Assembly: GCA_003222155.1 (NCBI GenBank)
Contig: QHUU01000063.1
Span: 4,794-68,793, forward strand
DNA from: Gemmatimonadota bacterium
GTDB lineage: Bacteria; Gemmatimonadota; Gemmatimonadetes; Gemmatimonadales; GWC2-71-9
DNA: 64,000 bases
Reading direction: 5' to 3'
The notes below the pieces were generated by a model. That model ran no database searches. It saw only the letters and a list, made by a program, of their open reading frames with translations, and was not told the origin of the DNA. The translations under genes and the position numbers were made by a program. Position 1 is the first letter of the stretch, and every line of letters begins with the position of its first letter. Shown here piece by piece: positions 6,930 through 39,876 of the stretch.

Positions 6930-6958
6930 CCATGCGGCCACCTTCGAGGACTCGACCC

Positions 6959-9991: not shown

Positions 9992-10090
9992 CGCGTTTCA
10001 ACTTAGCCTCGCGGCCCCTTCTTGCGGAGGTGCCGAACGGACCGCAGCATATGGGGGGTTTTCGTGCGGCTCACCGCTCGAGGAGGCTTC

Positions 10091-13126: not shown

Positions 13127-13128
13127 CC

Positions 13129-24297: not shown

Positions 24298-24900
24298 GTG
24301 ACCCCGCCAAGGCGTCTCAGTCAAGAGCAAGAACACTCTTTGGTGCGCCGCCTCAAGGCGCGGGACGAGCACGCGCTCCAGGAATTATACGACGCGCTCG
24401 CACCCTGGGTCCTCGGCCTCGCCTATCGCATCCTGCACGACGAAGACGCGGCCGAGGAAGTAGTCGGTGACGTCTTCGTGAAAGTGTGGCGTGGCGTCCA
24501 CAAGCACGACCCGGACCGCGGTCCGCTGGTGCCGTGGATCCTATCCATCGCGCGTAACCGGGCGCTCGACGAGCTGCGGCGGCGTCAGCGGTGGTGGCGC
24601 AAGGCAGAAAGGTGGGGGCAGGCGCGGGGGGCGACGGGGGCGGGAGAGGAAGTCGCAAACCCGGGGCCGCACGAAGCCGCCGTTCCCGGGTGGCCGCTGC
24701 ACCGCGAGGTGCACGCCGCGCTCGCGACACTGCCGGACGAGCTGCGGCGCGTAGTGATGCTCGCGTATTTCGAAGGGCTGTCGCACAGCCAGATCGCGCG
24801 CCGCCTGCAGCAGCCTCTGGGGACGGTGAAAACGCGGCTGCGGGCGGCTCATCAGAAGTTGACGGACCAGCTGGCACATCTCAAGGATTGGCTGGAATGA
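24298..24900 (+). CDS. ECF-family RNA polymerase sigma factor
   Basis: Region 2 (YDALAPWVLGLAYRILHDEDAAEEVVGDVFVKVW) and region 4 (LPDELRRVVMLAYFEGLSHSQIARRLQQPLGTVKTRLR). GTG start. Confidence 0.9.
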   Translation: MTPPRRLSQEQEHSLVRRLKARDEHALQELYDALAPWVLGLAYRILHDEDAAEEVVGDVFVKVWRGVHKHDPDRGPLVPWILSIARNRALDELRRRQRWWRKAERWGQARGATGAGEEVANPGPHEAAVPGWPLHREVHAALATLPDELRRVVMLAYFEGLSHSQIARRLQQPLGTVKTRLRAAHQKLTDQLAHLKDWLE

Positions 24901-25481
24901 CGGACTGGTTGGGCATGTCGGTGCCTCCGCGGACGCCGCGCCCCGAGCTCAAGGGCCGGGTGCTGGCGCGCGCCCTGGCGCGCGGGCGGCGCTGGCCGTT
25001 GGCGCTGGCGGCGGCGCTCGTGGTCGTGGCGGGAGGAGGGGGGAGTCTGTGGTGGGCGCACGGCAGGATCGACGCGCTCGGTGCGGAGCGGGATCGGCTC
25101 GCGGCGCGGGTCGCGGCCCTCGAGGACACGGTCTCGAGCTTCATCCACGACCCCGCGACGCGACTCATCCAGGTTCCCGTCTCGACCGGGGGCCGTGTCG
25201 GGTCGGTGACGATCTTTGTCGACAGCACGCGGCACCGCTGGCTGGTGCGCTGCGAGGGCCTGGCCCCGAATGCCCGGGACCAGACCTACCAGTTGTGGTT
25301 CGTCACCGACAAGGGAATGCAGCCCGCGGCCCTGATGCTGATGGATCGGGACCAGCCCATGGTGATGGGGTTGCCGCTACCGCAGGCGGGGGAGCGCGTG
25401 ATGGGAGCGGCGATGAGCATCGAGCCGCGGGCCGGCTCGGCGAGTCCGAGCGGGCCCATCGTCTTCCGCGTGGGGCTTTAG
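24897..25481 (+). CDS. Anti-sigma factor, RskA-like C-terminal domain
   Basis: ATGA overlap with the sigma gene and one TM segment (WPLALAAALVVVAGG). QTYQLWFVTDKGMQPAALM resembles the anti-sigma-K (RskA) extracytoplasmic domain. Confidence 0.75.
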   Translation: MTDWLGMSVPPRTPRPELKGRVLARALARGRRWPLALAAALVVVAGGGGSLWWAHGRIDALGAERDRLAARVAALEDTVSSFIHDPATRLIQVPVSTGGRVGSVTIFVDSTRHRWLVRCEGLAPNARDQTYQLWFVTDKGMQPAALMLMDRDQPMVMGLPLPQAGERVMGAAMSIEPRAGSASPSGPIVFRVGL

Positions 25482-26062: not shown

Positions 26063-26857
26063 ATGCCCCTCAACATCCGCACCTATCACGAGCTGACCGA
26101 GCCGGATCGGTCCGGGCTTCCGGGCCAGATCGCGGCCCAGCGGCGCCGGGTGGCGGCGCGGCTCGCGGGCGTGGGGCGCGTGGTCGCCGTGATGAGCGGC
26201 AAGGGTGGCGTGGGGAAGAGCTTCGCCACCGCGGGGCTCGCCCGGGCTCTGGCGCGCGCAGGTCGGGCCGCGGGGGTGCTCGACGCCGATTTCAACGGAC
26301 CGACCATCCCCGCACTTCTCAGCCTCCCTGTCGCACGTTGCACGTTGCATGAGGATGGCATCGAGCCGGCCGTGAGCGCGGAAGGCGTGCGGTGTTTCTC
26401 CATGGCGCTGCTCCTCGAAGACGGCCGGCCGCTCGGGTTCCGGGGCCCGGAGGCGGATAGCCACGTGTGGCGCGAGACGCTCGAAGCCGCGGCGCTGCGG
26501 GAGTTCCTGGCCGACGTCGCCTGGGGCCCGCTCGATCGGCTGCTCGTCGACCTGCCGCCCGGGATCCAGCGGTTCCAGGAGCTCGCCGGGCTGTTGCCGG
26601 CGCCGCCGGCCGTGCTGACCGTGACCATTCCCACGGCGGAATCGCGCGATGCGGTGCGCCGCGCGATGCAGTTCGCCCGGGAGCGCCGCGCTGAGCTGCT
26701 CGGCGTGGTGGAGAACATGGTGGACGGTCCGTTCGCCGGCGGCGCGGGCGAAGACCTGGCACGCGAGTTCGGGGTGCCGCTGCTCGCACGCATCCCCTGG
26801 CACCCGACCCCGGACGTCTGGGAAGCGGTGGCGCGAAGATTGGAAGGCGGGTCGTGA
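26063..26857 (+). CDS. Mrp/NBP35/ApbC-family P-loop ATPase (Fe-S cluster carrier type)
   Basis: Deviant Walker A VAVMSGKGGVGKSF. Also DADFNGPTIP, LLVDLPPG and VVENM motifs. Confidence 0.85.
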   Translation: MPLNIRTYHELTEPDRSGLPGQIAAQRRRVAARLAGVGRVVAVMSGKGGVGKSFATAGLARALARAGRAAGVLDADFNGPTIPALLSLPVARCTLHEDGIEPAVSAEGVRCFSMALLLEDGRPLGFRGPEADSHVWRETLEAAALREFLADVAWGPLDRLLVDLPPGIQRFQELAGLLPAPPAVLTVTIPTAESRDAVRRAMQFARERRAELLGVVENMVDGPFAGGAGEDLAREFGVPLLARIPWHPTPDVWEAVARRLEGGS

Positions 26858-26860
26858 GAG

Positions 26861-26959
26861 TTCACACGCTGAAGGGTGTACCCGAAACGGCCCTGCCCTT
26901 AAGGGCAGCGCTTCACCGGGCCCAGGCTTCAGCCTGGGAATCAAGGGGGCGCGTGTGAA
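26861..26959 (+). promoter_or_regulatory. Structured intergenic leader (outer stem enclosing two hairpins) that occludes the downstream start codon
   Basis: Outer stem TTCACACGC (26861-26869) pairs with GCGTGTGAA (26951-26959). Inner hairpins CTGCCC-TTAA-GGGCAG (26893-26908) and CCCAGGC-TTCA-GCCTGGG (26921-26938). The GTG start at 26955 sits in the outer stem. Confidence 0.4.
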
Positions 26960-27404
26960 GTTCCTCTGCGTCGACTGCGACCGGCAGATGCTGTTCGAGG
27001 AGCGGCAGCTCCCCGGGGACGGCACGCTCGCGGCGGCGTTCCGGTGCCCCCAATGCGGTCGCGCCGTCGGGCTGTTGACCAATCCGATGGAGACGCAGCT
27101 CGTGGCGTCGCTGGGCGTAAAGATCGGCGGGACGACGATCGACCCGCAGCCGCTCGAGACGGTGCGGGGGATGGTCACGACGGGGCGAGACGAAGCCTTC
27201 GCGGAGGCGGCGGGGGACGGGGGACGAGGGACGGGTGTCGTCTGGTCGGTCGACGCTCAGGAGCGCCTGGCCCGGGTCCCCAACTTCGTGCGCGGGATGG
27301 TGAAGAAGATCTACGCCGACTATGCCAAGGATCGCTGCATTGCGGAGATCACCCCGGCCGTGATGGACACCGCGCGGAGCGAGCTCGGGCTCGAGGGCAT
27401 GTGA
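26955..27404 (+). CDS. Zinc-ribbon + PCP_red (BchB/ChlB C-terminal-like) domain protein
   Basis: RBS AAGGGGG. CVDC...CPQC zinc ribbon. C-terminal VVWSVDAQERLARVPNFVRGMVKKIYADYAKDRCIAEITPAVMD matches the W-x-x-x-A-x-x-x-L-x-x-[IV]-P-x-F-[VA]-R pattern of PCP_red. Confidence 0.7.
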   Translation: MKFLCVDCDRQMLFEERQLPGDGTLAAAFRCPQCGRAVGLLTNPMETQLVASLGVKIGGTTIDPQPLETVRGMVTTGRDEAFAEAAGDGGRGTGVVWSVDAQERLARVPNFVRGMVKKIYADYAKDRCIAEITPAVMDTARSELGLEGM

Positions 27405-27676
27405 GCCTGGACGAGCGCACAGTCCACGGGCTGCGCATCGTGATCGACCGCGAGCAGTGCGTCGGGTTCGGCGACTGTGCGACGGCAGCCCCCGAGGGTT
27501 TCAAATTGGACGCCGACACCATCGCCACCTTCCTCGAGCCGGAGCGGGTGGAGCGCGAGCGCCTGCTGCGGGCGTGTGACGCCTGTCCGGTAGATGCCAT
27601 AACCGTTTGGGACTCAGAGGGTAGGCAGCTGGTGCCAGGACAGTCCACGGCTAGACGCACAGACGCACCGCGGTGA
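27401..27676 (+). CDS. Small single-cluster ferredoxin
   Basis: GTG overlapping the upstream stop (ATGTGA). CVGFGDC ... CDACPVDAI cysteine pattern. Confidence 0.75.
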   Translation: MSLDERTVHGLRIVIDREQCVGFGDCATAAPEGFKLDADTIATFLEPERVERERLLRACDACPVDAITVWDSEGRQLVPGQSTARRTDAPR

Positions 27677-27746
27677 ATAGGGAGTAGTCGGCAGGAGCAT
27701 CCGCCCACTCGGCCCTGTTCACCACTGTGCGTCCGTTGCGTCTAGC
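27650..27746. repeat. Long-range inverted repeat spanning the ferredoxin stop and intergenic spacer (terminator/insulator candidate)
   Basis: GCTAGACGCACAGACGCAC (27650-27668) versus GTGCGTCCGTTGCGTCTAGC (27727-27746). The arms are complementary apart from one extra base, separated by about 58 nt. Confidence 0.5.
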
Positions 27747-27772
27747 TGTTGCATCTTCTGTTCGCTGCTTAC

Positions 27773-27801
27773 TTGACAGCCTGTCTCGTCGTTCACATAC
27801 T
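27773..27801 (+). promoter_or_regulatory. Sigma-70-like promoter candidate for the USP/radical-SAM/bd-like operon
   Basis: TTGACA (27773-27778), 17-nt spacer, CATACT (27796-27801), about 20 nt upstream of the GTG at 27821. Confidence 0.4.
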
Positions 27802-27820
27802 CGCCGCGCCCAAAGGGGAG

Positions 27821-29794
27821 GTGCCGGTGTACCGCGAGATCTTCGTCCCGGTCGACAACTCGAGTCCTTCGGACTGGGCAGTCGACCGGGCCATCGAGTT
27901 GTGCCGCCAATCCGACGGCCGCATCACCGGAAACCACGTTTATGCCGCCCGCCTCCACGACGTCCGCTTTCGCCAGCTCGAAACCGGGCTCCCGGCCCGG
28001 TTCCAGACTCCCGACGAGATCAAGAAACAGCGCAAGATCCACGACAAGCTGATCGAAAAAGGCCTGCAACTGATCGCGGACAGCTTTCTCGACCAGCTGG
28101 GGAAGCGCTGCGAGGCGGCCGGCGTGCGTCTGACTCGCCAGCTGTTGGAAGGCATCAACTACGAGGAGATCGTCAACGAGGTGAACCGCGGCGCCGGCCG
28201 GCTGCCGGGGCTGATCGGCTTCGACCCCGACCGCGCGGCGGGCTACGACGGGGGCGACAAGACGCGCTCGGACGTGAAGGTGGGTGAGAATGGCCGGCTC
28301 GTGGCCGAAGACGAGGACGCGGCCGCGCGGCTTGCCGGCTCGTCGGGCCGCCAGTACGACCTGCTCGCGATCGGCGCGCACGGTCTGGGCCGTCAGCCCT
28401 ACTCGCAGCTCGGGGGCGTGGTGTCGCGCGTGCTGCGCGGCATCGAGAAGGACGTGCTGCTGGTGCGCGACGAGCGGCCGTTCGCGGGCGGGCGGTTCCT
28501 GGTGTGCGTGGACGGGTCGTCCTACGGCTATCGGGCGATGCGGCTGGCGCTCGAGCTGGCCCAGGCGTTCGGCGGGTCGCTGTTCGTGTGCAGCGCGTTC
28601 GACGTGGAGTACCACCACGTTGTGTTTCACAACATCAAGGATGTTCTCTCCTATCAAGCGTCCAAAGTCTTCAAGTTCGAGGAGCAGGAGGAGCTGCACA
28701 ACAACATCATCGACAAGGGCCTCCTGAAGCTGTGCCAGGCGAACCTGAAGCGCGCCGAGGTGATGGCGCAGGAGTTCCCCGGCGTCTCTCTCACGACGCA
28801 GATCCTGGTGGGCAAGCCGTTCCAGGTGATCATGCAGTGGGCCGAGGAGATCAAGCCGTCGCTGCTGGTGCTGGCGCGGCACGGCGCCCATCGGATCGAA
28901 GGCACCGAGCTCGGTAGCCAGGCGGAGAACCTCGTGCGGCTTGCGCCTTGCAACGTGCTGCTCGCGGGGACGGGCGGGGTGAGGCCCGAGGACATCCCCT
29001 GGATCGAGGAAGACGGGGTGGCGGGGCTGCCCTGGGCGCCGGAGGCCGAGGTGCGGATTCTGCGGGTGCCGCCGTTCGCGCAGGGGATCGCGCGCCGGGC
29101 CGTGGAGGAATACGTGCTGGAGCAGACGCACGGAGAGCCCGCGACGGTCACCAACAAGTGGCTCGACGAGGCGATCCGGAAGCTTCTGCCCACCCACATG
29201 CAGCTCATCATGGGCATCGGGACGGCCGAGGAGATCGCGCTCGCGGAAGTGAAGGCGCAGGAGCAAATGAAGGCGACGAAGGTGCATGGCTGCGACGCCG
29301 ACCCCCAGCCCCTGACCCCTGAAGTTGAAGTGAAATGCCCAGTCACGGGCGCTGTGAGCCGCCGTCCGCGCACCGCGGCCGACCCGATCGTCTGGACCGA
29401 GGAGGCCTGGCAGCGGCTGCAGCTGGTGCCCCTCATCGCCCGGCCGCTGGCGCGCAACACGGTCGAGCGGTTCGCGCGCGGGCACGACATCTGGCGCGTG
29501 AGCACCGGCGTGATGGACGAAAACAAACAGGCGATGATCGCGGCCGACGAGTTCGACGTGGACACGATGATGGTGATGTTCCAGGAGCTGCGCGCCAAGC
29601 AGATCCGCGCCGAGGCCGAAGGGCGCGATGGATTGAGTCCCGAGATGCGGGCGTTCATCGAGGAGGCGAAAGCGCAGGGGATCACGCGTTGCCCCATTCG
29701 GGACATCGAGGAAAAGATGGGGAAGTGCCCGGTCGACTTCGGGGGCCTGACGCCCGAGGAGGCGAAGCAGGCGGTGGAGAAGCTGTTGCAGTGA
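27821..29794 (+). CDS. Tandem universal-stress-protein (USP) domains fused to two PCP_red domains
   Basis: USP motifs (YREIFVPVDNS...; LLAIGAHGLGRQPYSQLGGVVSRVLRGIEKDVLLV; FLVCVDGS...LVLARHGAHRIEGTELGSQAENLVRLAPCNVLL). Then LPWAPEAEVRILRVPPFAQGIARRAVEEY and IVWTEEAWQRLQLVPLIARPLARNTVERFAR. Start at 27821 or 27827 (GTG); the ORF-track start at 27749 is unlikely. Confidence 0.8.
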   Translation: MPVYREIFVPVDNSSPSDWAVDRAIELCRQSDGRITGNHVYAARLHDVRFRQLETGLPARFQTPDEIKKQRKIHDKLIEKGLQLIADSFLDQLGKRCEAAGVRLTRQLLEGINYEEIVNEVNRGAGRLPGLIGFDPDRAAGYDGGDKTRSDVKVGENGRLVAEDEDAAARLAGSSGRQYDLLAIGAHGLGRQPYSQLGGVVSRVLRGIEKDVLLVRDERPFAGGRFLVCVDGSSYGYRAMRLALELAQAFGGSLFVCSAFDVEYHHVVFHNIKDVLSYQASKVFKFEEQEELHNNIIDKGLLKLCQANLKRAEVMAQEFPGVSLTTQILVGKPFQVIMQWAEEIKPSLLVLARHGAHRIEGTELGSQAENLVRLAPCNVLLAGTGGVRPEDIPWIEEDGVAGLPWAPEAEVRILRVPPFAQGIARRAVEEYVLEQTHGEPATVTNKWLDEAIRKLLPTHMQLIMGIGTAEEIALAEVKAQEQMKATKVHGCDADPQPLTPEVEVKCPVTGAVSRRPRTAADPIVWTEEAWQRLQLVPLIARPLARNTVERFARGHDIWRVSTGVMDENKQAMIAADEFDVDTMMVMFQELRAKQIRAEAEGRDGLSPEMRAFIEEAKAQGITRCPIRDIEEKMGKCPVDFGGLTPEEAKQAVEKLLQ

Positions 29795-31065
29795 ACCTCG
29801 TCCCGCACGTGATCGCCTGGAATCTGACCAGGCGCTGCAACCTCGAGTGCGCGCATTGCTACATCTCGGCCGGACCGAGCGAGAGCGCCGCCGCCGAGCT
29901 CGACACGGCGGCGTGCGTCGACATCGTGGACCAGCTGCTCGCGGTGAATCCCGCGCCACTCCTCATCCTGTCGGGAGGTGAGCCGTTGTTGCGGCCGGAC
30001 CTGGGCGAGATCGCCCACTACGCGTGCGCCAACGGCGCGACAGTGGTGGTCGGGACCAACGGCACGCTGCTCACCGAAGAGCGCATCGCGGCGCTCACGG
30101 ACGCCGGCGTGCGGGGCGTCGCGGTCAGCGTCGACTCGCTGCGTCCGTCGTATCACGACAACTTCCGCCACGGCAGAGGCGCTCTCGCCGATGTGCAGGC
30201 GGCGCTCGCGCGGCTGCGCGCGGCACGGCTCGACTTCATCGTGCAGACGACGGTGACCAAGGGCAACCGCGCCGAGCTGGAGCGCTTGGTGGCGTGGTCG
30301 GCAGACGAAGGGGCCGTCTCGTTCAACTGCTACTTTCTGGTGCCGACCGGCCGTGGCGCGGCGCTCTCGGACCTGACGCCGGCGGACTACGAGGCGGTGC
30401 TCGCCGACCTCGCTCGCTGGGAGGGCGCCTATCGGGGCCGCATGCTGGTGCGGGCGAAGTGCGCCCCGCATTTCATGCGCCTCGTGCATCAGACCGACCC
30501 CGAGTCCCCGGTCCTGAACTACGAGACCCGCTGTCCCTGCGGCACGCAGTACTGCCGCATCACCCCGGACGGCAAGGTCACGCCGTGCCCGTACCTGCCC
30601 GAGGTGGCCGGGGATCTGCGGTCGCAGCGCTTCGCCGACGTGTGGCGGTCGTCGCCCCTGTTCCGGCGCCTGCGGGAGGGCCCGCTGCAGGGGAAGTGCG
30701 GGGCGTGCGAGTACCGCGCGGTGTGCGGCGGGTGCCGGGCGCGCGGGTTCGCGCTCGAGGGGGACGTGCTCGCCGCCGATCCGTCGTGCCTTTATCAACC
30801 GACGGGCGACACGGCCGTCATCGAGCCGGCCCGCGCCGTGCGCTACGGCGGCGACTTTCAACCGGCGCTCGCGTGGACGCCCGCGGCGCGCGAGCGCGTG
30901 GCGCGCATCCCCTCGTTCGTGCGGGGGGTCGTGATGGAGCGGGTGGAGGCGTGGGCGCGCCGCCAGGGACGGCGCGAAGTCACACCCGAGCTGCTCGCGG
31001 AAGTGCGCCGCGCGCTGCCGATCGACTTTTCCAAGAAGCGCCCGTTCTTCGTGGCTGACAGCTGA
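29791..31065 (+). CDS. Radical SAM/SPASM enzyme (AhbC/AhbD/NirJ-like) with C-terminal PCP_red domain
   Basis: GTGA overlap with the upstream gene. CNLECAHC radical-SAM cluster motif and LILSGGEPLLRPD. SPASM cysteines CPCGTQYC ... CGACEYRAVCGGCRARG. Tail LAWTPAARERVARIPSFVRGVVMERVEAWARRQG. Confidence 0.9.
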   Translation: MNLVPHVIAWNLTRRCNLECAHCYISAGPSESAAAELDTAACVDIVDQLLAVNPAPLLILSGGEPLLRPDLGEIAHYACANGATVVVGTNGTLLTEERIAALTDAGVRGVAVSVDSLRPSYHDNFRHGRGALADVQAALARLRAARLDFIVQTTVTKGNRAELERLVAWSADEGAVSFNCYFLVPTGRGAALSDLTPADYEAVLADLARWEGAYRGRMLVRAKCAPHFMRLVHQTDPESPVLNYETRCPCGTQYCRITPDGKVTPCPYLPEVAGDLRSQRFADVWRSSPLFRRLREGPLQGKCGACEYRAVCGGCRARGFALEGDVLAADPSCLYQPTGDTAVIEPARAVRYGGDFQPALAWTPAARERVARIPSFVRGVVMERVEAWARRQGRREVTPELLAEVRRALPIDFSKKRPFFVADS

Positions 31066-32780
31066 TGACCGACGGCGCCCTGCTGCTGCAAGCCGCCGCC
31101 GACTCGACTCGCGCCTACGGCGAGTTCCCTGTGATCGGCGCGCGGGCGTTCATATGGATCACGGCCGAAGTGCACCTGATGTTCGCCGCCTTCGTGCTCG
31201 GCGTGCCGATGTTCGCCGTGGTGACGGAGGCGATCGGCATCTTCGGCGGCGACGAGCGCTACGACCGGCTGAGCAAGGAGTTCACGCGCCTCCTGCTCGT
31301 GGCGTACAGCGCCACGGCGATCTGGGGCGCGATGCTGGTGTTCGGCCTGTCGACGCTGTATCCCCGGTTCTGGGCGTACCTGACCGCGATTTTCGCGCCG
31401 TCGATGTGGGCCTACGCGGCACTGTTCCTCGTCGAGTCGTTCACGCTGTACCTCTATTACTACGGCTGGGACCGCTGGAAGAAAGGCCGGGCCAAGCTGG
31501 GCCACTGGACGCTCGGCATCCTGCTCAACCTGTGGGGCACGATCGTGATGTTCATCGCGAACTCGTGGCTCACGTACATGATGTCGCCGCCCCGGGATAT
31601 CACGCCCACCACCGACCCGACCACGATCAAGCTGTGGCACGCGATCGCCAACGCGACGTGGATGCCGATCAACGTGCACCGGGTGATCGCCAACGTCGTC
31701 TTCGGCGGCGCGATCGTGGGGGCGTATGCGAGCTATCGCTTCCTCGCGGCACAGAGCGACGAGGAGCGGGCGCACTACGACTGGATGGGCTACGTCGGGA
31801 ACTTCATCGCGATGTCGGCCCTGATCGTGCTGCCGTTCGCCGGCTACTGGCTGGGGCGCGAGATCTATCAGTACGACCAGTCGATGGGCATCACGATGAT
31901 GGGCGGGTTCATGAGCTGGTTGTGGGTGATCCAGGCGTTCCTGATCGCGGTGCTGTTCCTGACGGGGAACTACTACCTGTGGATCGGGATGGGCCGCATT
32001 CCCGGCGCGGAGCGGTTCCGGCCCTACACCAAGTACCTGCTGATCGTGCTGGTGCTCGGCGCCATCGTGTGGGGCACGCCTCACACGATGATCGCCGACT
32101 CGAAGGAGCTGGCGGCGATGGGCGGATCGCACCACCCGTTCCTGGGCGCCCTGGGCGTGATGAGCGCCAAGAACACTGCCGTGAACCTGATGATCCTGAC
32201 CACGTTCCTCTCGTTCCTGCTGTACCGGCGCGCCAACACCCGTCCGGTGGTCCCGTGGGCGCGCGGCGGGACCATCATCCAGGGGGCGATGTTCGCCCTG
32301 GCGGCCGGCGTCGTGCTGTTTTACGGCATCCGTGGCTATTTCGTCGAGGCCATCGTCCGCATCGGCTTCAGCGTGTATCAGGTGCTCGCCGTCCTGAGCT
32401 GCATCGTGTTCGTGACGGTGATCGACGTGTTGATGGCTCGCGGCGCGCAGTCGCTCGGCACGATCCAGTGGGGCAAGATGCCGCCGCGGTCGCAATACGC
32501 GCTGTTCATCCTCGCGGTGACGTTCACGTGGCTCATGGGGCTGATGGGGTTCGCCCGCTCCGGCATCCGCCAGTACTGGCACGTGTGGCAGGTGATGCAG
32601 GACACGAGCAAGTACGCCGCCACCCCGGCGCTCGGCTACGCGTCCAAGATGATCAGCCTGTGCGTGCTGATCTTTCTCACGCTCGTCGCGTTCGTGTTCT
32701 GGCTCGGCGGGCTGGCGGAGAAGTCCACGTTCGTCGCCTCCGGCGAGCGCCAGGGAGGGGGCCGCCATGTGGGCCACTAA
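31065..32780 (+). CDS. Cytochrome bd subunit-I-like (CydA-like) membrane protein, no Q-loop, no CydB partner
   Basis: 1-nt overlap (TGATG) with the radical SAM gene. CydA-like motifs VHLMFAAFVLGVP, LFLVESFTLYLYYYGWDR, KLGHWTLG, IANSWLTYMMSP, INVHRVIANV. Polytopic throughout. Confidence 0.8.
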   Translation: MTDGALLLQAAADSTRAYGEFPVIGARAFIWITAEVHLMFAAFVLGVPMFAVVTEAIGIFGGDERYDRLSKEFTRLLLVAYSATAIWGAMLVFGLSTLYPRFWAYLTAIFAPSMWAYAALFLVESFTLYLYYYGWDRWKKGRAKLGHWTLGILLNLWGTIVMFIANSWLTYMMSPPRDITPTTDPTTIKLWHAIANATWMPINVHRVIANVVFGGAIVGAYASYRFLAAQSDEERAHYDWMGYVGNFIAMSALIVLPFAGYWLGREIYQYDQSMGITMMGGFMSWLWVIQAFLIAVLFLTGNYYLWIGMGRIPGAERFRPYTKYLLIVLVLGAIVWGTPHTMIADSKELAAMGGSHHPFLGALGVMSAKNTAVNLMILTTFLSFLLYRRANTRPVVPWARGGTIIQGAMFALAAGVVLFYGIRGYFVEAIVRIGFSVYQVLAVLSCIVFVTVIDVLMARGAQSLGTIQWGKMPPRSQYALFILAVTFTWLMGLMGFARSGIRQYWHVWQVMQDTSKYAATPALGYASKMISLCVLIFLTLVAFVFWLGGLAEKSTFVASGERQGGGRHVGH

Positions 32781-33576
32781 CCTGAAGGTCGTCGGGATCG
32801 TGCTGGGGACCCTGGCACTCTATACGCTCATCGCCAACAAGATTCCGCAGGTGCAGTCCGAGGTGCCGCAAACCCTCACCCTGGGGGCGAACGTCACGCC
32901 CGAACAGCTGGTGGCGGCGGGAGAGAAGGTGTTCAACGGCATCGGCGGCTGCCCCACCTGCCACGGGCTCGGCACGCGCGCGCCCAATCTCCTCACGGAC
33001 GAGAAGGGCACCGGACCGATCGGCGCCCGCTGCGGCAAGCGGGAAGCCGGCAAGAGCTGCAAGCAGTATCTGTACGAGTCGCTCGACAATCCGACCGCGT
33101 TCGTCGTGACGGGCTATCAGCCGATCATGCCGGTCATGACCAGGCAGCTCTCGCCAGAGCAGATCTGGTCGGTGATCGCCTTCTTGGAGTCGCAGGGCGG
33201 CACCGTGGACGTAACAGGGGACGACGTAGCCAAAGCGAAGCAACTGACCCCGGGCGCAAGCCCGGCGAATTCGGGAGGTAGTCCTGGTGGTGGGGCCTTT
33301 GCCGCCGGCAGCACGGACCCCAAAGCCATCATCCAGGCGGCGGGGTGCCTCGCGTGCCACAAGCTCGACGGCCAGGGACAGGTGATCGCGCCCGATCTCA
33401 CGCATGTGGGCGCGCGCCGGGACGCGGAATCGATCCGCAAGAAGATCCTGGATCCGGCGTCGTCGATCGCGAAGGGCTACGAGAAGCTCGCCGGGATCAT
33501 GCCCAAGACGTTCGGCACCATGATGAGCGCCGCGCAGCTCGAAGCGCTGGTGCAGTATCTGGCGGGGCACAAGTGA
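32767..33576 (+). CDS. Membrane-anchored dihaem c-type cytochrome
   Basis: N-terminal TM segment and two CxxCH motifs (CPTCH, CLACH), each followed by a Met-containing distal region. 14-nt overlap with the upstream gene. Confidence 0.85.
   Translation: MWATNLKVVGIVLGTLALYTLIANKIPQVQSEVPQTLTLGANVTPEQLVAAGEKVFNGIGGCPTCHGLGTRAPNLLTDEKGTGPIGARCGKREAGKSCKQYLYESLDNPTAFVVTGYQPIMPVMTRQLSPEQIWSVIAFLESQGGTVDVTGDDVAKAKQLTPGASPANSGGSPGGGAFAAGSTDPKAIIQAAGCLACHKLDGQGQVIAPDLTHVGARRDAESIRKKILDPASSIAKGYEKLAGIMPKTFGTMMSAAQLEALVQYLAGHK
33244..33265. repeat. REP-like element family A, partial copy 4, embedded in the cytochrome c inter-domain linker
   Basis: CTGACCCCGGGCGCAAGCCCGG is identical over 22 nt to 45522-45543. 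It is translated as ..LTPGASPAN.. Confidence 0.6.
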
Positions 33577-34391
33577 CCGCACCCGCGCTGCGGCGCTCCG
33601 CCACGCACCCGTTCTGGCAGGCGGTGGGAATTCTCGTTATCGCCTACATCGTAGTCGTGTGGGTGGTGCCGCTGCTCCCGGGCAGCGCCATCGTCCCGAA
33701 GAGCGTGGTGCTCCAATACATGGTCACGGTGCTGGTCGGCGTGCTCATCTACGTGAGCGACAACGAGGAACGTTGGGCCCGCTTCAAAGAGCCGATCGAG
33801 GCCGTGCTGGCCGAGCCGCGGCTCCGGGTGGTGCGGGCCGTGCTGCTCGTCGTGGTGACGGCGCTGGTCGGGCTCGTGGCGTACGGGCAGGTGGCCACCA
33901 CCGTCGCCGCCCCACCCAATCTCCGCTCGATCCACCCCGCCCCGCCCGCGGAAATCACGTTCCGGGGCAGGTCGATCACGCTGACAGGGCTCGAGAACCC
34001 GCTGCGCGCGCACCCGGAGTCGCTCGCCCTCTACCTGGCCGAGGGGAAGGGCGTCTACTACCGCAACTGCCTGCCCTGTCACGGGGACCACCTCGACGGT
34101 CAGGGGCACTTCGCATCGGGGTTCAATCCACTGCCGGCGAACTTCCAGGACAACGGCACCATCGCCCAGCTCACGGAGAGCTTCGTGTTCTGGCGCGTGG
34201 CCAAGGGCGGGCCGGGTCTGCCGCGTGAGGGCACGCCGTGGAACTCGGCGATGCCGAAGTGGGAGGACTTTCTCACGGAGCGCGAGATCTGGTCGGTGAT
34301 CCTGTTCCTGTACGATCAAACCGGGTGGACTCCACGAACCTGGGAGAAAACGGGGACGGGGGACGGGGGACGGGGGACGGGGCATGATTGA
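33573..34391 (+). CDS. Polytopic membrane-anchored monohaem c-type cytochrome
   Basis: GTGA overlap with the upstream gene. Three or four TM segments, then CLPCHGDHLDG and a ...NSAMPKWEDFLTEREIWSVILFLY cytochrome c fold. Confidence 0.8.
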   Translation: MTAPALRRSATHPFWQAVGILVIAYIVVVWVVPLLPGSAIVPKSVVLQYMVTVLVGVLIYVSDNEERWARFKEPIEAVLAEPRLRVVRAVLLVVVTALVGLVAYGQVATTVAAPPNLRSIHPAPPAEITFRGRSITLTGLENPLRAHPESLALYLAEGKGVYYRNCLPCHGDHLDGQGHFASGFNPLPANFQDNGTIAQLTESFVFWRVAKGGPGLPREGTPWNSAMPKWEDFLTEREIWSVILFLYDQTGWTPRTWEKTGTGDGGRGTGHD

Positions 34392-34452
34392 CGGGCTTCT
34401 GGTCCTCGCGCTCCTCGCACCACTCGTCCCCCGTCCCCCTTCCCTCGTCCCG
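34351..34452. repeat. (GGGGACG)x4 heptamer array plus inverted (CGTCCCC-like)x4 array forming a long hairpin over a gene junction
   Basis: Left arm 34352-34379 is four exact GGGGACG units. Right arm 34425-34452 is CGTCCCC CGTCCCC CTTCCCT CGTCCCG. The 42-nt loop holds the ATG at 34384 and the TGA at 34389-34391. Confidence 0.8.
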
Positions 34453-35961
34453 CTGCAGGACACGACGAAAGGGAAGGCAGTTTATGTGAAGTGGTGCGCC
34501 GGTTGCCATGGCGATGGCGGCGCGGGCGACGGCCCCTCCGCCGCGCACATGCTTCCCCGGCCCCGCAACTTCACCGGCGCGATCTATAAGATCCGCAGTA
34601 CGGCCTCGGGTCAGCTGCCGACCGACGCCGACCTGATGCGGGCGATCGACGAAGGGCTGCCCGGGAGCGCGATGCCGGCGTGGAAGGGGCGCCTGTCGGA
34701 CGGCGAGCGGCGCGACGTGGCCGGGTACATCAAGACGTTCTCCGCGTTCTTCGCGGACACGAGCCAGCACGCGGCGGCGCTCAAGTTCTCGGGCGAGCCG
34801 GGCGGTGGCACCGGCGCGGCGGCGCTCAAGACCGGGCGCCAGTTCTACGATTCCATCGGGTGCCGCAAGTGTCACGGCGACCAGGGGCGGGGAGACGGGC
34901 CGTCCGCGCCCACGCTCAAGGACGACGCCGGGTTTCCCATCTTCGCGGCGGACCTGCATCAGAGCTGGCGGTTTCGCGGGGGGGGCAGTGCGGCGGACAT
35001 CTACCACCGGCTGCGCACCGGGCTCGACGGGACACCGATGCCCTCGTTCTCGGACCTGATCGACCAGAAGTTCCTGACCGACGAGCAGCTGTGGCGGCTG
35101 GCCCAGTACGTACGCTCGCTCTCGCCGCCCGACCCGCCCGAGGTGCGCGACGTCATCCATGCGCCGCAGATCGCCGGCCCCGCGCCGGTCTCGCCCGACG
35201 ACTCGGCGTGGGCGCGCGCCGACCGCTACTGGTTCCCGCTCGTCGGGCAGGTGGTGCGCAAGGCGCGCTGGTTCGCGCCCGCGGTGACGGGTGTGTGGGT
35301 GCAGGCGCTGCACGACGGCCACACCCTCGCGCTGCGGTTGAGCTGGGACGATCGCACCCAGAGCCCTGACAGCGCGTGGCTCGGGTTCGAGCAGCGCGTG
35401 CTCGAGACCGTCGCCGGCGACGACTCGGGCCCCCCCAAGGCGGAGCCGTGGCCCGACCAGCTGGCGGTGCAGTTCCCCCGCCGTCTCCCGGAGGGTTCGG
35501 GGGGCATGGAGCGCCCCTACTTCTTGATGGGAAGCGAGACCGACCCGGTGTACCAGTGGCGCTGGACCAGCCGGCCGCGCAAGAGCGTCGCGGGCCTGGC
35601 CCGGGGCATCGAGCGGTTCGACACGCTCCCCGGGGCGTTGGCGGGGCAGGCGAGCTTCGATCACGGCGAGTGGCGGCTGGTGTTCACGCGCGCCCTTGCC
35701 ACGCCGGATACCGCCAACGAAGTTCAGCTTGAGGCCGGCCGGGCGATTCCGGTGGCCTTCTTCGGCTGGGACGGCTCCAGCGGGGAACACGGCTCGCGCA
35801 TGGCGGTGAGCACCTGGTACTTCCTGGCGCTCGATCGGCCCACGCCGCCGGGCGTGTTCATTTCTCCGGTGCTGGCCATGCTCGTGACGCTGGGACTGGG
35901 GCTCGTGGTCGTCCGGCGGGCCCGGCGGCGCGGTACGGCGCGTGCAGGGAGACAGCGATAG
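34384..35961 (+). CDS. Dihaem cytochrome c fused to an EB_dh/DOMON-like (ethylbenzene-dehydrogenase gamma-type) haem-binding domain, C-terminal TM anchor
   Basis: CAGCH and CRKCH motifs. Then WVQALHDGHTLALRLSWDD...DQLAVQFP...YFLMG...YQWRW...GEWRLVFTRAL...VAFFGWDGSSGEHGSRMAVSTW, as in EB_dh-family domains. Terminal TM segment ISPVLAMLVTLGLGLVVV. Confidence 0.8.
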   Translation: MIDGLLVLALLAPLVPRPPSLVPLQDTTKGKAVYVKWCAGCHGDGGAGDGPSAAHMLPRPRNFTGAIYKIRSTASGQLPTDADLMRAIDEGLPGSAMPAWKGRLSDGERRDVAGYIKTFSAFFADTSQHAAALKFSGEPGGGTGAAALKTGRQFYDSIGCRKCHGDQGRGDGPSAPTLKDDAGFPIFAADLHQSWRFRGGGSAADIYHRLRTGLDGTPMPSFSDLIDQKFLTDEQLWRLAQYVRSLSPPDPPEVRDVIHAPQIAGPAPVSPDDSAWARADRYWFPLVGQVVRKARWFAPAVTGVWVQALHDGHTLALRLSWDDRTQSPDSAWLGFEQRVLETVAGDDSGPPKAEPWPDQLAVQFPRRLPEGSGGMERPYFLMGSETDPVYQWRWTSRPRKSVAGLARGIERFDTLPGALAGQASFDHGEWRLVFTRALATPDTANEVQLEAGRAIPVAFFGWDGSSGEHGSRMAVSTWYFLALDRPTPPGVFISPVLAMLVTLGLGLVVVRRARRRGTARAGRQR

Positions 35962-35989: not shown

Positions 35990-36727
35990 ATGGGGAAGCT
36001 CGGAGCTGTGGCGGCGACGGGAGTGGCGGTGCTGGTGCTGGCGCTCGGGGGGTGGATGCGCGCGCCCCTCCCCGCCGCACAGGGGGGCGGGACCATCAGC
36101 GGCAAGGTGAAGTTCACCGGCGCGAAGCCCGCCATGCCGAAGATCGACATGAGCGAGGAGCCGAAGTGCAAGGCGAAGTACACGGCCGCGCCGCCCACAG
36201 ACGAGGCCGTGGTGGTGAACGCGAACGGCACCCTCGCCAACGTGTTCGTCTACGTGAAGTCGGGCCTCCCGGCGAGCTACAAGGCGCCCGCGCCCGCCGG
36301 GCCGGTGACGCTCGACCAGGACGGCTGCCGCTACCATCCGCACGTGTTCGGCATCCTGGTCGGCCAGAACCTCGCCATCAAGAACTCCGACGGCATCCTG
36401 CACAACATCAAGGCGAAGGGGACGAAGAATCGTCCGTTCAACATCAGCCAACCGACGACCATGACGTCGGAGCGGACCTTCACGGCTCCCGAGGTGATGG
36501 TGCCGCTCGAGTGCAACGTGCACGGCTGGATGCACGCGTGGCTGGGCGTGTTGCCGCACCCGTTCTTCGCGGTCTCGGGCACGGACGGCAGCTTCACGAT
36601 CAAGGGGCTCCCGCCCGGGACCTATACGATCGAGGCCTGGCAGGAGAAGTACGGCGCGCAGACCGCGACCGTGACGGTGGCGGGGAGTGAGACGAAGACG
36701 GCGGATTTCGGTTTCGCCGCCAAGTGA
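35990..36727 (+). CDS. Cupredoxin (type-1 copper site) with carboxypeptidase-regulatory-like C-terminal domain
   Basis: GGAGG RBS and a signal anchor. Copper ligand pattern ILHNIKA ... CNVHGWMHAW (H...C-x2-H-x2-M). Then FTIKGLPPGTYTIEAW. Confidence 0.75.
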   Translation: MGKLGAVAATGVAVLVLALGGWMRAPLPAAQGGGTISGKVKFTGAKPAMPKIDMSEEPKCKAKYTAAPPTDEAVVVNANGTLANVFVYVKSGLPASYKAPAPAGPVTLDQDGCRYHPHVFGILVGQNLAIKNSDGILHNIKAKGTKNRPFNISQPTTMTSERTFTAPEVMVPLECNVHGWMHAWLGVLPHPFFAVSGTDGSFTIKGLPPGTYTIEAWQEKYGAQTATVTVAGSETKTADFGFAAK

Positions 36728-36746: not shown

Positions 36747-37418
36747 ATGCATTGGTGGCTGCCGCTCAAGGGTTCGACGTTCGCGGGGGAGGTGGACGGC
36801 CTGTTCCTGGCGATCACGATCATCACCGGGATCGCGTTCGTGCTGGTCGAGGTGGGGCTGATCTGGTTCGTCGTGAAATACCGGCAGCGGCCGGGCCGGA
36901 AGGCCTTCTATACGCACGGGAGCACCCGCGCGGAAGTGATCTGGACCGCGATCCCCGCGGTGACCATGGTGGCGCTGGGCCTCATCAGCAACCACTACTG
37001 GGTCCGGATCAAGGGGCGCAACAGCGTGCCCCCGAACGCCTACCCGATCGCGATCCACGCCAAGCAGTTCGAGTGGCAGGTCACCTATCCGGGGCCGGAC
37101 GGGAAGCTGGGGACGAGCGACGACTTCACCGTCCGCAACCAGCTGCACGTGCCCGTCGGACGGCCCATCGTCGTCCGCCTCACCTCGGAAGACGTGATCC
37201 ACTCGTTCTTCGTTCCCGTGTTCCGGGTGAAGCAGGACGCGGTTCCGGGGATGGACATCAATGCCTGGTTCCAGGCGACGGTGCCGGGCACCTATGAGCT
37301 GGGCTGCGCCGAGCTGTGCGGGTTGGGGCACTACCGCATGCGGGCGCAGGTGTTCGTGCAAAGCCAGGAAGACTACGACGCCTGGACGAAGCAGGCTGCT
37401 CAGGAGGCCTCGTCATGA
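36747..37418 (+). CDS. coxB: Cytochrome c oxidase subunit II (CuA)
   Basis: Two N-terminal TM segments. VIHSFFVP and the CuA site CAELCGLGHYRM. Confidence 0.9.
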   Translation: MHWWLPLKGSTFAGEVDGLFLAITIITGIAFVLVEVGLIWFVVKYRQRPGRKAFYTHGSTRAEVIWTAIPAVTMVALGLISNHYWVRIKGRNSVPPNAYPIAIHAKQFEWQVTYPGPDGKLGTSDDFTVRNQLHVPVGRPIVVRLTSEDVIHSFFVPVFRVKQDAVPGMDINAWFQATVPGTYELGCAELCGLGHYRMRAQVFVQSQEDYDAWTKQAAQEASS

Positions 37419-39181
37419 CCACCGTGGCCGCGACCGCACATCCCGCCCCCGCGCATCACGACGACCGGAGCTTCATCCGGAAGTACGTGTTTTCGACCGA
37501 TCACAAGATCATCGGCATCCAGTTCCTGTTCGTGAGCCTGTTCTTCCTGCTCGTGGGCGGGCTGTTGGCGATGCAGATGCGCTGGCAGCTCGGCTTCCCG
37601 GGCAAGCCGATGCCGGGCGGCGGCGTCCTCCCCGAGACCATGGCGCCGGGCGGCGTGATCCTGCCGGAGTATTACATCCAGCTGGTGACGATGCACGGCA
37701 CGTTCATGGTGTTCTTCGCCATCATGCCGCTGCTCGTGGGCGTGTACGCGAACTTCCTGATCCCGCTGAAGATCGGGACGCACGACATGGCGTTCCCGCG
37801 CATCAACATGTGGTCGTTCTGGTCGTTCTTCGCGGCGGGCCTGGTGATGCTGGCGAGCCTGTTCGTGCCGGACGGCGCCGCGCGCGCCGGGTGGACGATG
37901 TACGCGCCACTGTCGGCGCGGCACGACCTCTCCGGCGCGTCCTTCGGGCAGGAGATGTGGTCGGTCTCGATCATTCTGGTCGGACTGTCGTCCATTCTGG
38001 GCTCCCTGAACTACATCACCACGATCATCAACAACCGCGCACCCGGCATGACGTGGTTCCGCCTGCCGCTGTCGGTGTGGTCGCTGTTCATCACCGCTAT
38101 CCTCGGCCTGCTCGCCCTGCCCGTGCTTTCCGGCGCGGCGATCATGCTCCTGTTCGACCAGATCATCGGGACGCATTTCTTCGATCCCGCAGCGGGCGGT
38201 CAGGCGCTCCTGTGGCAGCACCTGTTCTGGTTCTTCGGCCACCCCGAGGTCTACATCCTGATCCTGCCCGCGATGGGCATGGTGTCGGACATCATCGCGA
38301 ACGGCAGCCGCAAGCCGATCTTCGGCTATCACTCGATGGTGTTCGCGATCGTCGCGATCGCGTTCCTGGGGTGGATCGTGTGGGGCCACCACATGTTCAT
38401 GAGCGGGATGAACCCGACGCTCGGGTCGTCCTTCATGGTGTCGACGCTCGTGATCGCCGTTCCCTCGGCCGTGAAGACGTTCAACTGGATGGGGACGATG
38501 TGGCGCGGCAACCTGCGGTTCACCGTGCCGATGCTCAACGCGGTCGCGTTCGTCGCAATGTTCGTGATCGGAGGGCTGTCCGGCATCTTCATGGCGGCGA
38601 CGCCGGTGGACATGTTCATCCACGACACGTACTTCATCGTGGCCCACCTGCACTACGTCTTGTTCGGCGGCAGCCTGTTCGCGCTGTTCGCCGCGATCCC
38701 GTACTGGTATCCCAAGATGTTCGGCCGGCTGATGCACGAGGGCTGGGGCAAGGTGCACTTCTGGCTCACGTTCATTTTCTACAACTTGGTCTTCTTCCCG
38801 ATGCACATCCTCGGCATGGCGGGGCACATGCGGCGGATCTACGATCCGACGCAGTATGCGTTCCTCCAGCCCTACCAGCCGATGAACGAGTTCATTTCGA
38901 TCAGCGCGTTCCTGCTGTTCGCGACGCAGATCATTTTCTTCGTGAATTTCTGGTGGAGCCTGAAGCGGGGCAAGCCGTCCGGGCTCAATCCCTGGCAGGA
39001 CAACGGCCTGGAGTGGACGCTGCCGAGTCCCGCGCCGCACGGCAACTGGGAGCGGGTGCCGACGGTGTACCGCGGCCCGTACGAGTTCAGCTCACCGCAG
39101 GTGCCCGAGGACTACCTGCCGCAGACCCGCAGGCTGCCGAGCGACCGTGAGCCGGCCGCAGCGTCGGCCGCACGCCACTGA
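37415..39181 (+). CDS. coxA: Cytochrome c oxidase subunit I (A-family haem-copper oxidase)
   Basis: ATGA overlap with coxB. TDHKIIGIQFLF, WFFGHPEVYILILPAMG and HHMF motifs. Confidence 0.95.
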   Translation: MTTVAATAHPAPAHHDDRSFIRKYVFSTDHKIIGIQFLFVSLFFLLVGGLLAMQMRWQLGFPGKPMPGGGVLPETMAPGGVILPEYYIQLVTMHGTFMVFFAIMPLLVGVYANFLIPLKIGTHDMAFPRINMWSFWSFFAAGLVMLASLFVPDGAARAGWTMYAPLSARHDLSGASFGQEMWSVSIILVGLSSILGSLNYITTIINNRAPGMTWFRLPLSVWSLFITAILGLLALPVLSGAAIMLLFDQIIGTHFFDPAAGGQALLWQHLFWFFGHPEVYILILPAMGMVSDIIANGSRKPIFGYHSMVFAIVAIAFLGWIVWGHHMFMSGMNPTLGSSFMVSTLVIAVPSAVKTFNWMGTMWRGNLRFTVPMLNAVAFVAMFVIGGLSGIFMAATPVDMFIHDTYFIVAHLHYVLFGGSLFALFAAIPYWYPKMFGRLMHEGWGKVHFWLTFIFYNLVFFPMHILGMAGHMRRIYDPTQYAFLQPYQPMNEFISISAFLLFATQIIFFVNFWWSLKRGKPSGLNPWQDNGLEWTLPSPAPHGNWERVPTVYRGPYEFSSPQVPEDYLPQTRRLPSDREPAAASAARH

Positions 39182-39198: not shown

Positions 39199-39876
39199 AT
39201 GACGCACGCAGCCGCCACCGTCGACCAGATGCGGCCCCCGTACCCGGCCGAGCGGGGGCTCGACGTCTACAACACGAAGCTCGGGATGTGGGTGTTCCTC
39301 GCGTCGGAGGTGATGTTCTTCGCCGCGTTGATCGGGACCTACATCATCCTGCGGTTCGGCGCCCCGGGCGAATGGGCCAAGCCGGGGATCGTCTTGAACA
39401 TCAAGATCACCGCCTTCAACACGTTTCTGCTGATCTGCTCGAGCGTGTCGATGGTCAAGGCGTACGCGGCCATCCAGGACGGCGACCCGAAGAAAATGCG
39501 CTTCTGGCTGTTGCTGACGATCCTGGGCGGCGCGACCTTCGTGGGGATTCAGGTCTACGAGTACATTCACCTGATCGAGCACGGCTTCGTGCCGAGCGGC
39601 GTGCGCGAGGGCAGCGAGCTGGCGGAGCTGGTCGCGAAGGGACAGTTGCCCGCCGCGACGATGGGCCTGTACGGGTCCACGTTCTTCACCATGACCGGGT
39701 TCCACGGCTTTCACGTCACGTGCGGCGTGATTTCGATGACCTACCTGTACCTGACGAAAGCGCTGCCCGGCAAGTACACGAAGCAGAGCTACGGGGGGAT
39801 CGAGACGGTCGGCCTGTACTGGCACTTCGTCGACCTGGTATGGATCATCCTGTTCACGATCGTCTACCTCATTTGA
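39199..39876 (+). CDS. coxC: Cytochrome c oxidase subunit III
   Basis: KLGMWVFLASEVMFFAALI, FFTMTGFHGFHVTCG and WHFVDLVWI motifs. Confidence 0.9.
   Translation: MTHAAATVDQMRPPYPAERGLDVYNTKLGMWVFLASEVMFFAALIGTYIILRFGAPGEWAKPGIVLNIKITAFNTFLLICSSVSMVKAYAAIQDGDPKKMRFWLLLTILGGATFVGIQVYEYIHLIEHGFVPSGVREGSELAELVAKGQLPAATMGLYGSTFFTMTGFHGFHVTCGVISMTYLYLTKALPGKYTKQSYGGIETVGLYWHFVDLVWIILFTIVYLI

Follow-up and report, generated by a model that had tools for sequence, protein, structure and literature searches.

What does a protein that resembles subunit I of cytochrome bd do where it meets neither subunit II nor a quinol-binding loop and is followed by genes for c-type cytochromes? The question is raised by a 64,000-nt stretch of contig QHUU01000063.1 (positions 4,794 to 68,793 of the forward strand) from a Gemmatimonadota bacterium; this whole stretch, which has a GC content of ~69%, is referred to below as the window. 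Its closest relatives are metagenome-assembled genomes (MAGs) of Gemmatimonadales, one of which is 94% identical at the protein level with identical gene order. On the plus strand, at 31065-32780, the window encodes a bd-like haem protein of 571 amino acids with an ATG start. An original prediction, made from the letters and open reading frames (ORFs) of the window, placed this protein with the N-terminal half of E. coli CydA and proposed that it is coupled to cytochrome c rather than to quinol. Here, we assign it to OR-N2, a type of the bd superfamily that has already been defined from genome surveys, and that its gene is followed by genes for three cytochromes c, a cupredoxin and an aa3-type cytochrome c oxidase in an order that is conserved over several phyla. 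We give a probability of about one half to the reading that the bd-like module is a cytochrome c- or cupredoxin-fed O2 reductase co-expressed with the aa3 oxidase.

The homology to CydA is seen both in sequence and in predicted structure. The bd-like protein matches the Pfam family Cyt_bd_oxida_I (PF01654) with an E value of 8.5e-20 (71 bits against a cut-off of 26), and phmmer against all PDB chains returns CydA only (5doq_A, 5e-10; 9r2g_A, 1e-7; E. coli 6rko_A, 1e-6). The divergence is nevertheless too large for BLAST: an E. coli CydA query (sequence checked against the 6rko alignment) gave a blank tblastn result against the window, target included, and hence methods based on hidden Markov models are needed. 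An AlphaFold2 (AF2) model built with 50 homologues reached a pLDDT of 89.3 and a pTM of 0.87, and its best ten Foldseek matches in the PDB are all CydA (E 5e-10 to 8e-7), with CydB chains far weaker. The model has 13 transmembrane helices, and a topology with the N-terminus outside fits the charge counts (22 Lys and Arg in the inside loops versus 14 in the outside loops). The linker between helix 6 (residues 232-270) and helix 7 (residues 284-311) is ~13 residues long, i.e., there is no Q-loop, in keeping with the original prediction. The final two helices align with helices 8 and 9 of CydA in the phmmer alignment. Together with the weak CydB fold matches, this alignment rules out a CydB fused within the C-terminal half, which had been named beforehand as an arrangement that would speak against the prediction.

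Is a second bd subunit encoded nearby? A tblastn search with the bd-like protein against the window returned only the protein itself and no cydA or cydB paralogue, and the other polytopic ORFs of the window are limited to an amino-acid permease, the second cytochrome c (cytc2, see below), CoxA and CoxD/CtaB. The predicted absence of cydB from the window thus holds. No cydX was seen in the window either, but a gene of ~35 codons could escape the methods used, and on this point the earlier claim goes beyond their reach.

The residues that bind haems and conduct protons in canonical cytochrome bd were located in the bd-like protein, and their conservation was counted over 79 orthologues. The phmmer alignments (VHLMF with YHFLF, FLVES with FFLES, and INVHRV with KFVHTV) identify His37 (codon 31173-31175, plus strand, as for all features below) as the equivalent of E. 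coli His19, the axial ligand of the active-site haem, Glu124 (31434-31436) as the equivalent of Glu107 in the proton channel, and His205 (31677-31679) as the equivalent of His186, a ligand of haem b558. All three are present in 79/79 orthologues. These alignments bear out the His19 and His186 matches of the original prediction, which had, however, taken the conserved glutamate for Glu99. The Glu99 position is in fact Tyr117, given the one-residue-shorter spacing that is typical of the non-qOR1 families. For the His126 region, whose retention was also predicted, family offsets give His147 as the equivalent; Tyr117 and His147 are each found in 79/79 orthologues. The second ligand of haem b558 is probably Met366 (32160-32162; 79/79), which would correspond to Met393 and is followed by invariant Lys369 and Asn370. 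Met366 and Asn370 lie at +161 and +165 from the His186 equivalent, the same spacing as M430 and N434 of the OR-N2 reference, the mapping being by offset and not by structural superposition.

The third haem site is altered. The segment ARSGIRQYWH, which carries Ser499, Trp505 and His506 (codons 32559-32582), matches AEYGRQPW of CydA in the third phmmer domain against 6rko_A. Ser499 (Ser in 78 of the 79 orthologues) stands where CydA has Glu445, the ligand of haem b595, while Trp505, six residues after the serine, and His506 are invariant. Among the additional periplasmic histidines only H357, which precedes Met366, and H506 are invariant; H340 is present in 55/79 and H356 in 61/79. A conserved three-His copper site is not supported, since H340 and H356 vary, and neither is the suggested copper-binding histidine cluster. 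In this context, Luecker et al. are said to have proposed in 2010 a haem-copper-like site for the Nitrospira bd-like oxidase. It might be speculated from the conservation pattern that His506 or His357 could supply a ligand for the altered third haem site.

Which member of the bd superfamily is this protein? Murali, Gennis and Hemp (ISME J 2021; bioRxiv 10.1101/2021.01.16.426971) split the superfamily into qOR, OR-C and OR-N and recorded OR-N in Gemmatimonadota and Methylomirabilota. In their description, OR-N2 proteins have ~14 helices and no quinol site and are often the sole cydA-like gene product of an operon in which several cytochromes c and a haem b subunit resembling EbdC are also encoded. 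The OR-N2 signature in their Table S6 consists of H19, Tyr in place of E99, E107, H126 and H186 kept, M430/N434 at M393, Ser or Ala in place of E445, and W569. Every one of these positions is matched here (H37, Y117, E124, H147, H205, M366/N370, S499 and W505), and the operon likewise encodes multiple cytochromes c and an EbdC homologue, with no second cydA-like gene in the window. OR-N1 and OR-N2 were told apart by the Table S6 residues, with two paralogues from one metagenomic locus (L084) as proxies for reference sequences. The paralogue that adjoins Rieske and cytochrome b genes shares 35% identity with the bd-like protein and shows the OR-N1 signature, with Gly in place of E107 and Tyr in place of the Trp, whereas the second is 49% identical and has the Glu and the Trp, as in OR-N2. 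Because the signature residues match and the OR-N2-like paralogue is the closer of the two, the bd-like protein is assigned to OR-N2. The locus of the two paralogues (L084:3953-12899) has a Nitrospira-style order: an OR-N1-like bd gene, cytochrome c, Rieske, cytochrome b, a hypothetical gene, an OR-N2-like bd gene and two cytochromes c.

The bd-like protein shares with the OR-N2 reference the CydA-like first four helices with the His19 ligand, the lack of a Q-loop, the extra helices, and the Y/E/H/H/M-N/S/W signature. It differs in that its model has 13 helices rather than 14, the N-terminal anchor being missing. No start codon further upstream is available to the ORF, and an additional hydrophobic segment at the N-terminus of many homologues would make the fourteenth helix. 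The bd-like protein is accompanied by no OR-N1 partner and by no Rieske or cytochrome b genes, and it is hard-wired to a cupredoxin and aa3 operon and preceded by an AhbD/NirJ2-like radical SAM gene. No mention of the cupredoxin/aa3 link or of the radical SAM link was found in the text or supplement of Murali et al. (bioRxiv 10.1101/2021.01.16.426971). In later surveys, the putative cytochrome c oxidase of the Nitrospira defluvii NIDE0901 kind, termed "bd-like", is treated as the same thing as OR-N2, and the family is described as still biochemically uncharacterised as of 2024-25. The literature therefore agrees with the original prediction that CydB-less bd-like proteins are known and biochemically uncharacterised. 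Since cytochrome c coupling has already been proposed there for OR-N2, the finding is less novel than that prediction implied.

Membership in OR-C, the CydA-like type with a C-terminal haem c domain, was rejected, as the bd-like protein has 13 helices and no CXXCH motif of its own. The two types have in common that they lack the quinol site and are proposed to be fed by cytochrome c, and a dihaem cytochrome c forms part of the polypeptide in some homologues of the bd-like protein as well. OR-C, however, has ~8 helices, CXXCH in the same polypeptide, and no His186 equivalent (F183 in Table S6), whereas the bd-like protein keeps His205.

The genes that follow the bd-like gene point to candidate redox partners. 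From 27749 on, the plus-strand genes are densely packed, with starts and stops overlapping or separated by gaps of ≤40 nt: the stop of the preceding radical SAM gene and the start of the bd-like gene overlap as TGATG, the bd-like gene overlaps the next gene by 14 nt, and the gene after that starts 4 nt inside its neighbour's stop. These overlaps and close spacings suggest an operon; a promoter and terminator scan gave counts at chance level. The next three genes, as originally predicted, encode c-type cytochromes, and they carry 2, 1 and 2 CXXCH motifs, i.e., five c haems. The first, cytc1 (32767-33576), is a membrane-anchored dihaem protein (CPTCH, CLACH; Pfam Cytochrom_C and Cytochrome_CBB3), and the second, cytc2 (33573-34391), is a monohaem protein (CLPCH) with an N-terminal multi-helix membrane domain. 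In the third, cytc3 (34384-35961), a dihaem cytochrome c (CAGCH, CRKCH) is fused to an EbdC/NxrC-type haem b domain (Pfam EB_dh, 1.9e-16; NCBIfam DMSO_red_II_gam, 7e-24) and ends in a C-terminal transmembrane helix.

The gene at 35990-36727 is labelled only "CarboxypepD_reg" by Pfam, and some members of its family are called "plastocyanin" by JGI. Its product is anchored in the membrane and consists of an N-terminal part that is an amicyanin-like type-1 copper protein and a CarboxypepD_reg beta-sandwich at the C-terminus. The copper motif (H154-N155 ... C191-x2-H194-x2-M197) does not vary among 16 orthologues that come from four phyla, and the AF2 model (pLDDT 83.9) matches amicyanin, CuA domains, plastocyanin and pseudoazurin in Foldseek at a probability of 1.00. 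The copper motif and the cupredoxin fold rule out that this gene encodes merely a regulatory or carbohydrate-binding protein. Directly after it come coxB (36747-37418; Pfam COX2), coxA (37415-39181), coxC (39199-39876) and coxD (39890-40165), which together encode an aa3-type (A-family) cytochrome c oxidase, and ctaB for haem O synthase (40204-41010; Pfam UbiA). The CuA motif CAELCGLGHYRM and the GHPEVY motif of CoxA were read from the translations. The EbdC-type domain of cytc3, the cupredoxin gene and the full aa3 operon add to what was originally predicted.

To what extent is this arrangement conserved? Synteny was assessed by tblastn of the window genes against 80 loci, which were scanned for with alignment A3, the 50-sequence alignment A2 being too diverse for a locus scan. 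The order bd-like, cytc1, cytc2, cytc3-EB_dh, cupredoxin, coxB, coxA, coxC, (coxD), (ctaB) is found in essentially every sufficiently long locus, from Gemmatimonadales, Longimicrobiales and Palauibacter to Methylomirabilota/Rokubacteria and one Chloroflexi MAG. The cupredoxin gene occupies the place between the cytochrome c genes and coxB in four phyla. In none of these ~80 loci does a cydB gene adjoin the bd-like gene, and cytochrome c genes always follow it. In the Rokubacteria and Chloroflexi loci the upstream genes are divergent and unrelated, and hence the unit starts at the bd-like gene there. One NC10 MAG and one Myxococcota MAG carry the module without cox nearby. In the latter (L076:3406-15498), two divergently oriented bd-like/cytochrome c/cupredoxin modules stand side by side with differing internal order and without cox within 10 kb. 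The cupredoxin is retained in this cox-less locus, which argues that it is part of the bd-like module.

Further evidence for a complex comes from gene fusions. Three homologues (P0122, P0125 and P0134; 48-56% identity) bear a C-terminal transmembrane helix followed by a dihaem cytochrome c, and the fused extension of P0122 is homologous to cytc1 over its full length (E 3e-41). Such fusions are Rosetta-stone evidence, at the level of sequence, for a physical complex of the bd-like protein and a cytochrome c. A variant of this theme occurs in assembly GCA_900491425.1 (L086:10001-18197), where two Proton_antipo_M (NuoL/M/Mrp-like) genes and one for a four-haem cytochrome c-EB_dh protein lie downstream of an OR-N2-like/cytochrome c fusion; this arrangement hints that some OR-N2 complexes may recruit antiporter-type proton-pumping subunits.

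The family is large. More than 7,800 protein clusters were found at 90% identity, and the matches at 50% identity comprise 1,131 clusters, of which 236 reach E ≤1e-30; a scan of species-representative genomes gave at least 597 matches. The best 120 matches of a Gemmatimonadaceae query are all MAGs, with no cultured isolate among them. More distant relatives (36-39% identity) are solitary genes with an uninformative context.

Collectively, these data bear on the simplest reading of the public annotation, in which the protein would be subunit I of a canonical quinol-oxidising bd oxidase with its cydB elsewhere in the genome. NCBI and JGI records name such proteins "cytochrome ubiquinol oxidase subunit I", and the match to the Pfam family agrees with that name. 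Moreover, the protein and CydAB(X) (E. coli bd-I, 6rko; Geobacillus, 5doq) have the fold of subunit I in common, as well as the residues equivalent to His19, Glu107, His126, His186 and Met393 and a GRQPW-like loop (IRQYW). It differs from CydAB(X), however, in having no Q-loop or quinol site, no CydB or CydX seen, Ser in place of Glu445, Tyr in place of Glu99, and 13 helices rather than 9, i.e., four extra helices; and its partners are cytochromes c, as the gene neighbourhoods and the fusions described above attest. The absence of the Q-loop, of Glu445 and of an adjacent cydB contradicts a canonical quinol oxidase, to which we give hardly any chance, and the public name is misleading.

We therefore turn to what the module may do instead. 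The coupling to cytochrome c is supported by the fused homologues, the overlapping start and stop codons and the synteny in ~80 loci. In the reading that we favour, the bd-like protein most likely assembles with the three membrane-anchored cytochromes, which would provide five haems c and one EbdC-type haem b, and with the amicyanin-like cupredoxin. Compared with a canonical bd oxidase, such an enzyme would no longer have the Q-loop that binds quinol, the ligand Glu445 or CydB as a partner, while the His19-type active-site haem on helix 1 (His37) would be kept and the cytoplasmic proton path through helices 3 and 4 (Tyr117, Glu124 and His147) would be intact. Electrons would arrive from the periplasmic side via the c haems and copper and enter at the low-spin haem site ("b558", His205/Met366) near the periplasmic face. 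From there they would pass to the His37 haem, where O2 would be reduced with cytoplasmic protons, making the module a cytochrome c (or cupredoxin):O2 oxidoreductase. CuA of the aa3 oxidase, whose genes lie in this transcription unit too, would receive electrons from the same carriers, and a branched or supercomplexed terminal segment of the respiratory chain would result.

His37, the b558 ligands and the proton path are invariant in the 79 orthologues and are most simply read as serving a proton-consuming reduction at the His37 haem. An O2 reductase is favoured because a quinol dehydrogenase site would not need a His19 equivalent or the Glu107/His126 proton-path residues. This reading rests on the observed homology, retained and lost residues, fold, fusion and synteny, from which we infer cofactor content, the direction of electron flow and the substrate. 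Later surveys also report that in most Nitrospirales genomes the OR-N2 family is the sole candidate for a cytochrome c oxidase. With respect to the original prediction, the coupling to cytochrome c is upheld by the missing Q-loop, the cytochrome c fusions and the near-universal synteny; the part that set quinol aside is less secure, as the electron flow is deduced and oxidation of quinol at another site is a rival.

Several observations weigh against an O2 reductase. Two terminal oxidases in one conserved transcription unit are unusual, and synteny of the form "X then cox" is typical of quinol:cytochrome c reductases such as alternative complex III (ACIII) and qcr. The change to Ser499 removes the Glu445 ligand of the third haem, and therefore the canonical di-haem O2 site may not form. 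Glu124 is found in only 38/50 of the more distant OR-N2-like sequences of alignment A2. The OR-N2 proteins of Nitrospirales are thought to pair with OR-N1, while the bd-like gene here is alone in the window, and according to later surveys no OR-N enzyme has been characterised biochemically. Finally, a survey of 326 Gemmatimonadota genomes found that the phylum is mostly without annotated bc1 (petB in 23%) or ACIII (<10%), yet 74% have a caa3-type oxidase, which leaves room for a substitute of complex III; the authors of the survey suggest that novel complex III modules may exist (PMC9426454).

Could the bd-like module be that substitute? In this alternative, the bd-like protein would oxidise menaquinol at a site other than the Q-loop, and electrons would reach CuA of the aa3 oxidase by way of its b haems, then the three cytochromes with their six haems, and the cupredoxin, the two enzymes acting in series and not in parallel. 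A multi-haem membrane module followed by cox is the hallmark gene order of ACIII-caa3 and qcr-cta clusters. The order seen here mirrors it, is kept in Gemmatimonadota, Methylomirabilota/Rokubacteria and Chloroflexi from the bd-like gene through the three cytochromes c and the cupredoxin to coxBACD, and forms an operon that begins at the bd-like gene in Rokubacteria and Chloroflexi. The likeness to ACIII-caa3 and to the actinobacterial qcr-cta clusters is one of functional analogy: in each case a multi-haem c membrane module is encoded just ahead of an A-family oxidase and probably shares its transcript, but the modules are not homologous, and the operon here is without NrfD-like ActC/F, the Fe-S protein ActB, a Rieske protein or cytochrome b. 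Pfam and NCBIfam searches found no ActB, ActC/F or ActA-type domains in the operon, so that it resembles ACIII in gene order only. A blue-copper link that joins a quinol-oxidising part to an oxidase has a precedent in the SoxM complex of Sulfolobus. The phylum-wide figures given above also fit this alternative, as does the count of cydA in 173 but cydB in only 95 of the 326 Gemmatimonadota genomes (PMC9426454).

On the other hand, the Q-loop and its quinol-site residues are missing, and the invariant proton-path residues and His19-type ligand fit a proton-consuming reduction site better than a quinol site that faces the periplasm. The relative with 49% identity adjoins Rieske and cytochrome b genes in a locus where bd-like proteins are the sole oxidases, and the modules in the NC10 and Myxococcota MAGs occur without cox nearby. 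On balance we regard a complex III substitute as unlikely, though it is the main rival.

The genes upstream of the bd-like gene raise the question of whether its haems, or its substrate, are unusual. The translationally coupled radical SAM/SPASM protein (29791-31065; Pfam and NCBIfam) aligns over its full length with two NCBIfam models, scoring 291 bits with AhbD (haem b synthase) and 290 bits with NirJ2, each under the equivalog cut-off of 500, and it ends in a PCP_red domain, which is the ~45-residue C-terminal domain of the protochlorophyllide reductase subunit BchB. Two more PCP_red proteins precede it, one with a single such domain (26649-27404; Pfam) and one that combines USP with two PCP_red domains (27749-29794; Pfam); a small ferredoxin-like ORF also belongs to the block 26649-29794. 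This set is kept upstream of the module in Gemmatimonadota and more weakly in NC10, with L063 and L069 among the loci noted. A PCP_red ORF is also found after the Myxococcota module (L076:15534-16445). The radical SAM/PCP_red set may be a haem-tailoring or haem-delivery system, or it may simply act as an O2-independent coprohaem decarboxylase.

In this context, it has to be considered that the module might reduce NO, H2O2 or some further nitrogen or chlorine oxide instead of O2, for detoxification or anaerobic respiration, with the cytochrome c pool as donor. Reactivity towards NO and H2O2 is on record for canonical bd oxidases (cited in a later survey), Ser499 and the invariant His506 in the active-site loop make the site unlike that of canonical bd, and the AhbD/NirJ2-like gene belongs to a class that tailors haem d1 or haem b. 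The operon, however, is without denitrification or peroxide-stress genes, its tight link is to an aerobic aa3 oxidase and haem O synthase, and nothing speaks positively for any particular alternative substrate. We consider such a function improbable, and O2 is the substrate in the reading that we favour.

Other features of the window lie further from the bd-like gene. Downstream of ctaB, the ORF at 41427-42524 encodes a chlorite-dismutase-family HemQ-like domain fused to a Rieske [2Fe-2S] ferredoxin domain, and the fusion is present at full length in related Gemmatimonadales loci. It is followed by hemE, hemH and a hemY-like oxidase gene (42508-45513), and the respiratory operon is thus extended by a haem cluster of the coproporphyrin pathway. 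Two overlapping plus-strand ORFs (24298-25481), read from their translations as an ECF-type sigma factor and a putative anti-sigma protein, lie a few kb ahead of the respiratory cluster. Further upstream on the same strand are two tandem pairs of SusC-like (CarboxypepD_reg plus Plug, TonB-dependent receptor) and SusD-like genes (3837-8353 and 10022-14589), a polysaccharide-uptake architecture of Bacteroidota style within a Gemmatimonadales genome.

Taken together, what was an unexplained "bd-like" gene now comes with two specific models that can be put to the test, namely a second oxidase or a substitute for complex III. In the literature examined we did not find the conserved cupredoxin/aa3 coupling over several phyla, the use of cytochrome c fusions as evidence for a complex, or the association with an AhbD/NirJ2-like radical SAM protein and PCP_red proteins. 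OR-N enzymes are regarded as the chief terminal oxidases of certain nitrite oxidisers, Nitrospira and Nitrospina among them, organisms that are slow-growing and genetically intractable, and no OR-N enzyme has been purified. Correcting the name "cytochrome ubiquinol oxidase subunit I" also matters, since counts of bd quinol oxidases in soil genomes and metagenomes are probably inflated by OR-N2 genes. If the bd-like module were a complex III substitute, it would fill the place of the "missing complex III" in most Gemmatimonadota and in Rokubacteria; it would have a cytochrome bd scaffold and be a third unrelated solution to quinol:cytochrome c oxidoreduction after bc1/b6f and ACIII, for which the upstream radical SAM and PCP_red proteins may supply a tailored haem. 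OR-N2 is a fixed part of an aerobic respiratory operon in Gemmatimonadota and Rokubacteria, phyla that are abundant in soil, and this broadens the ecological weight of the family.

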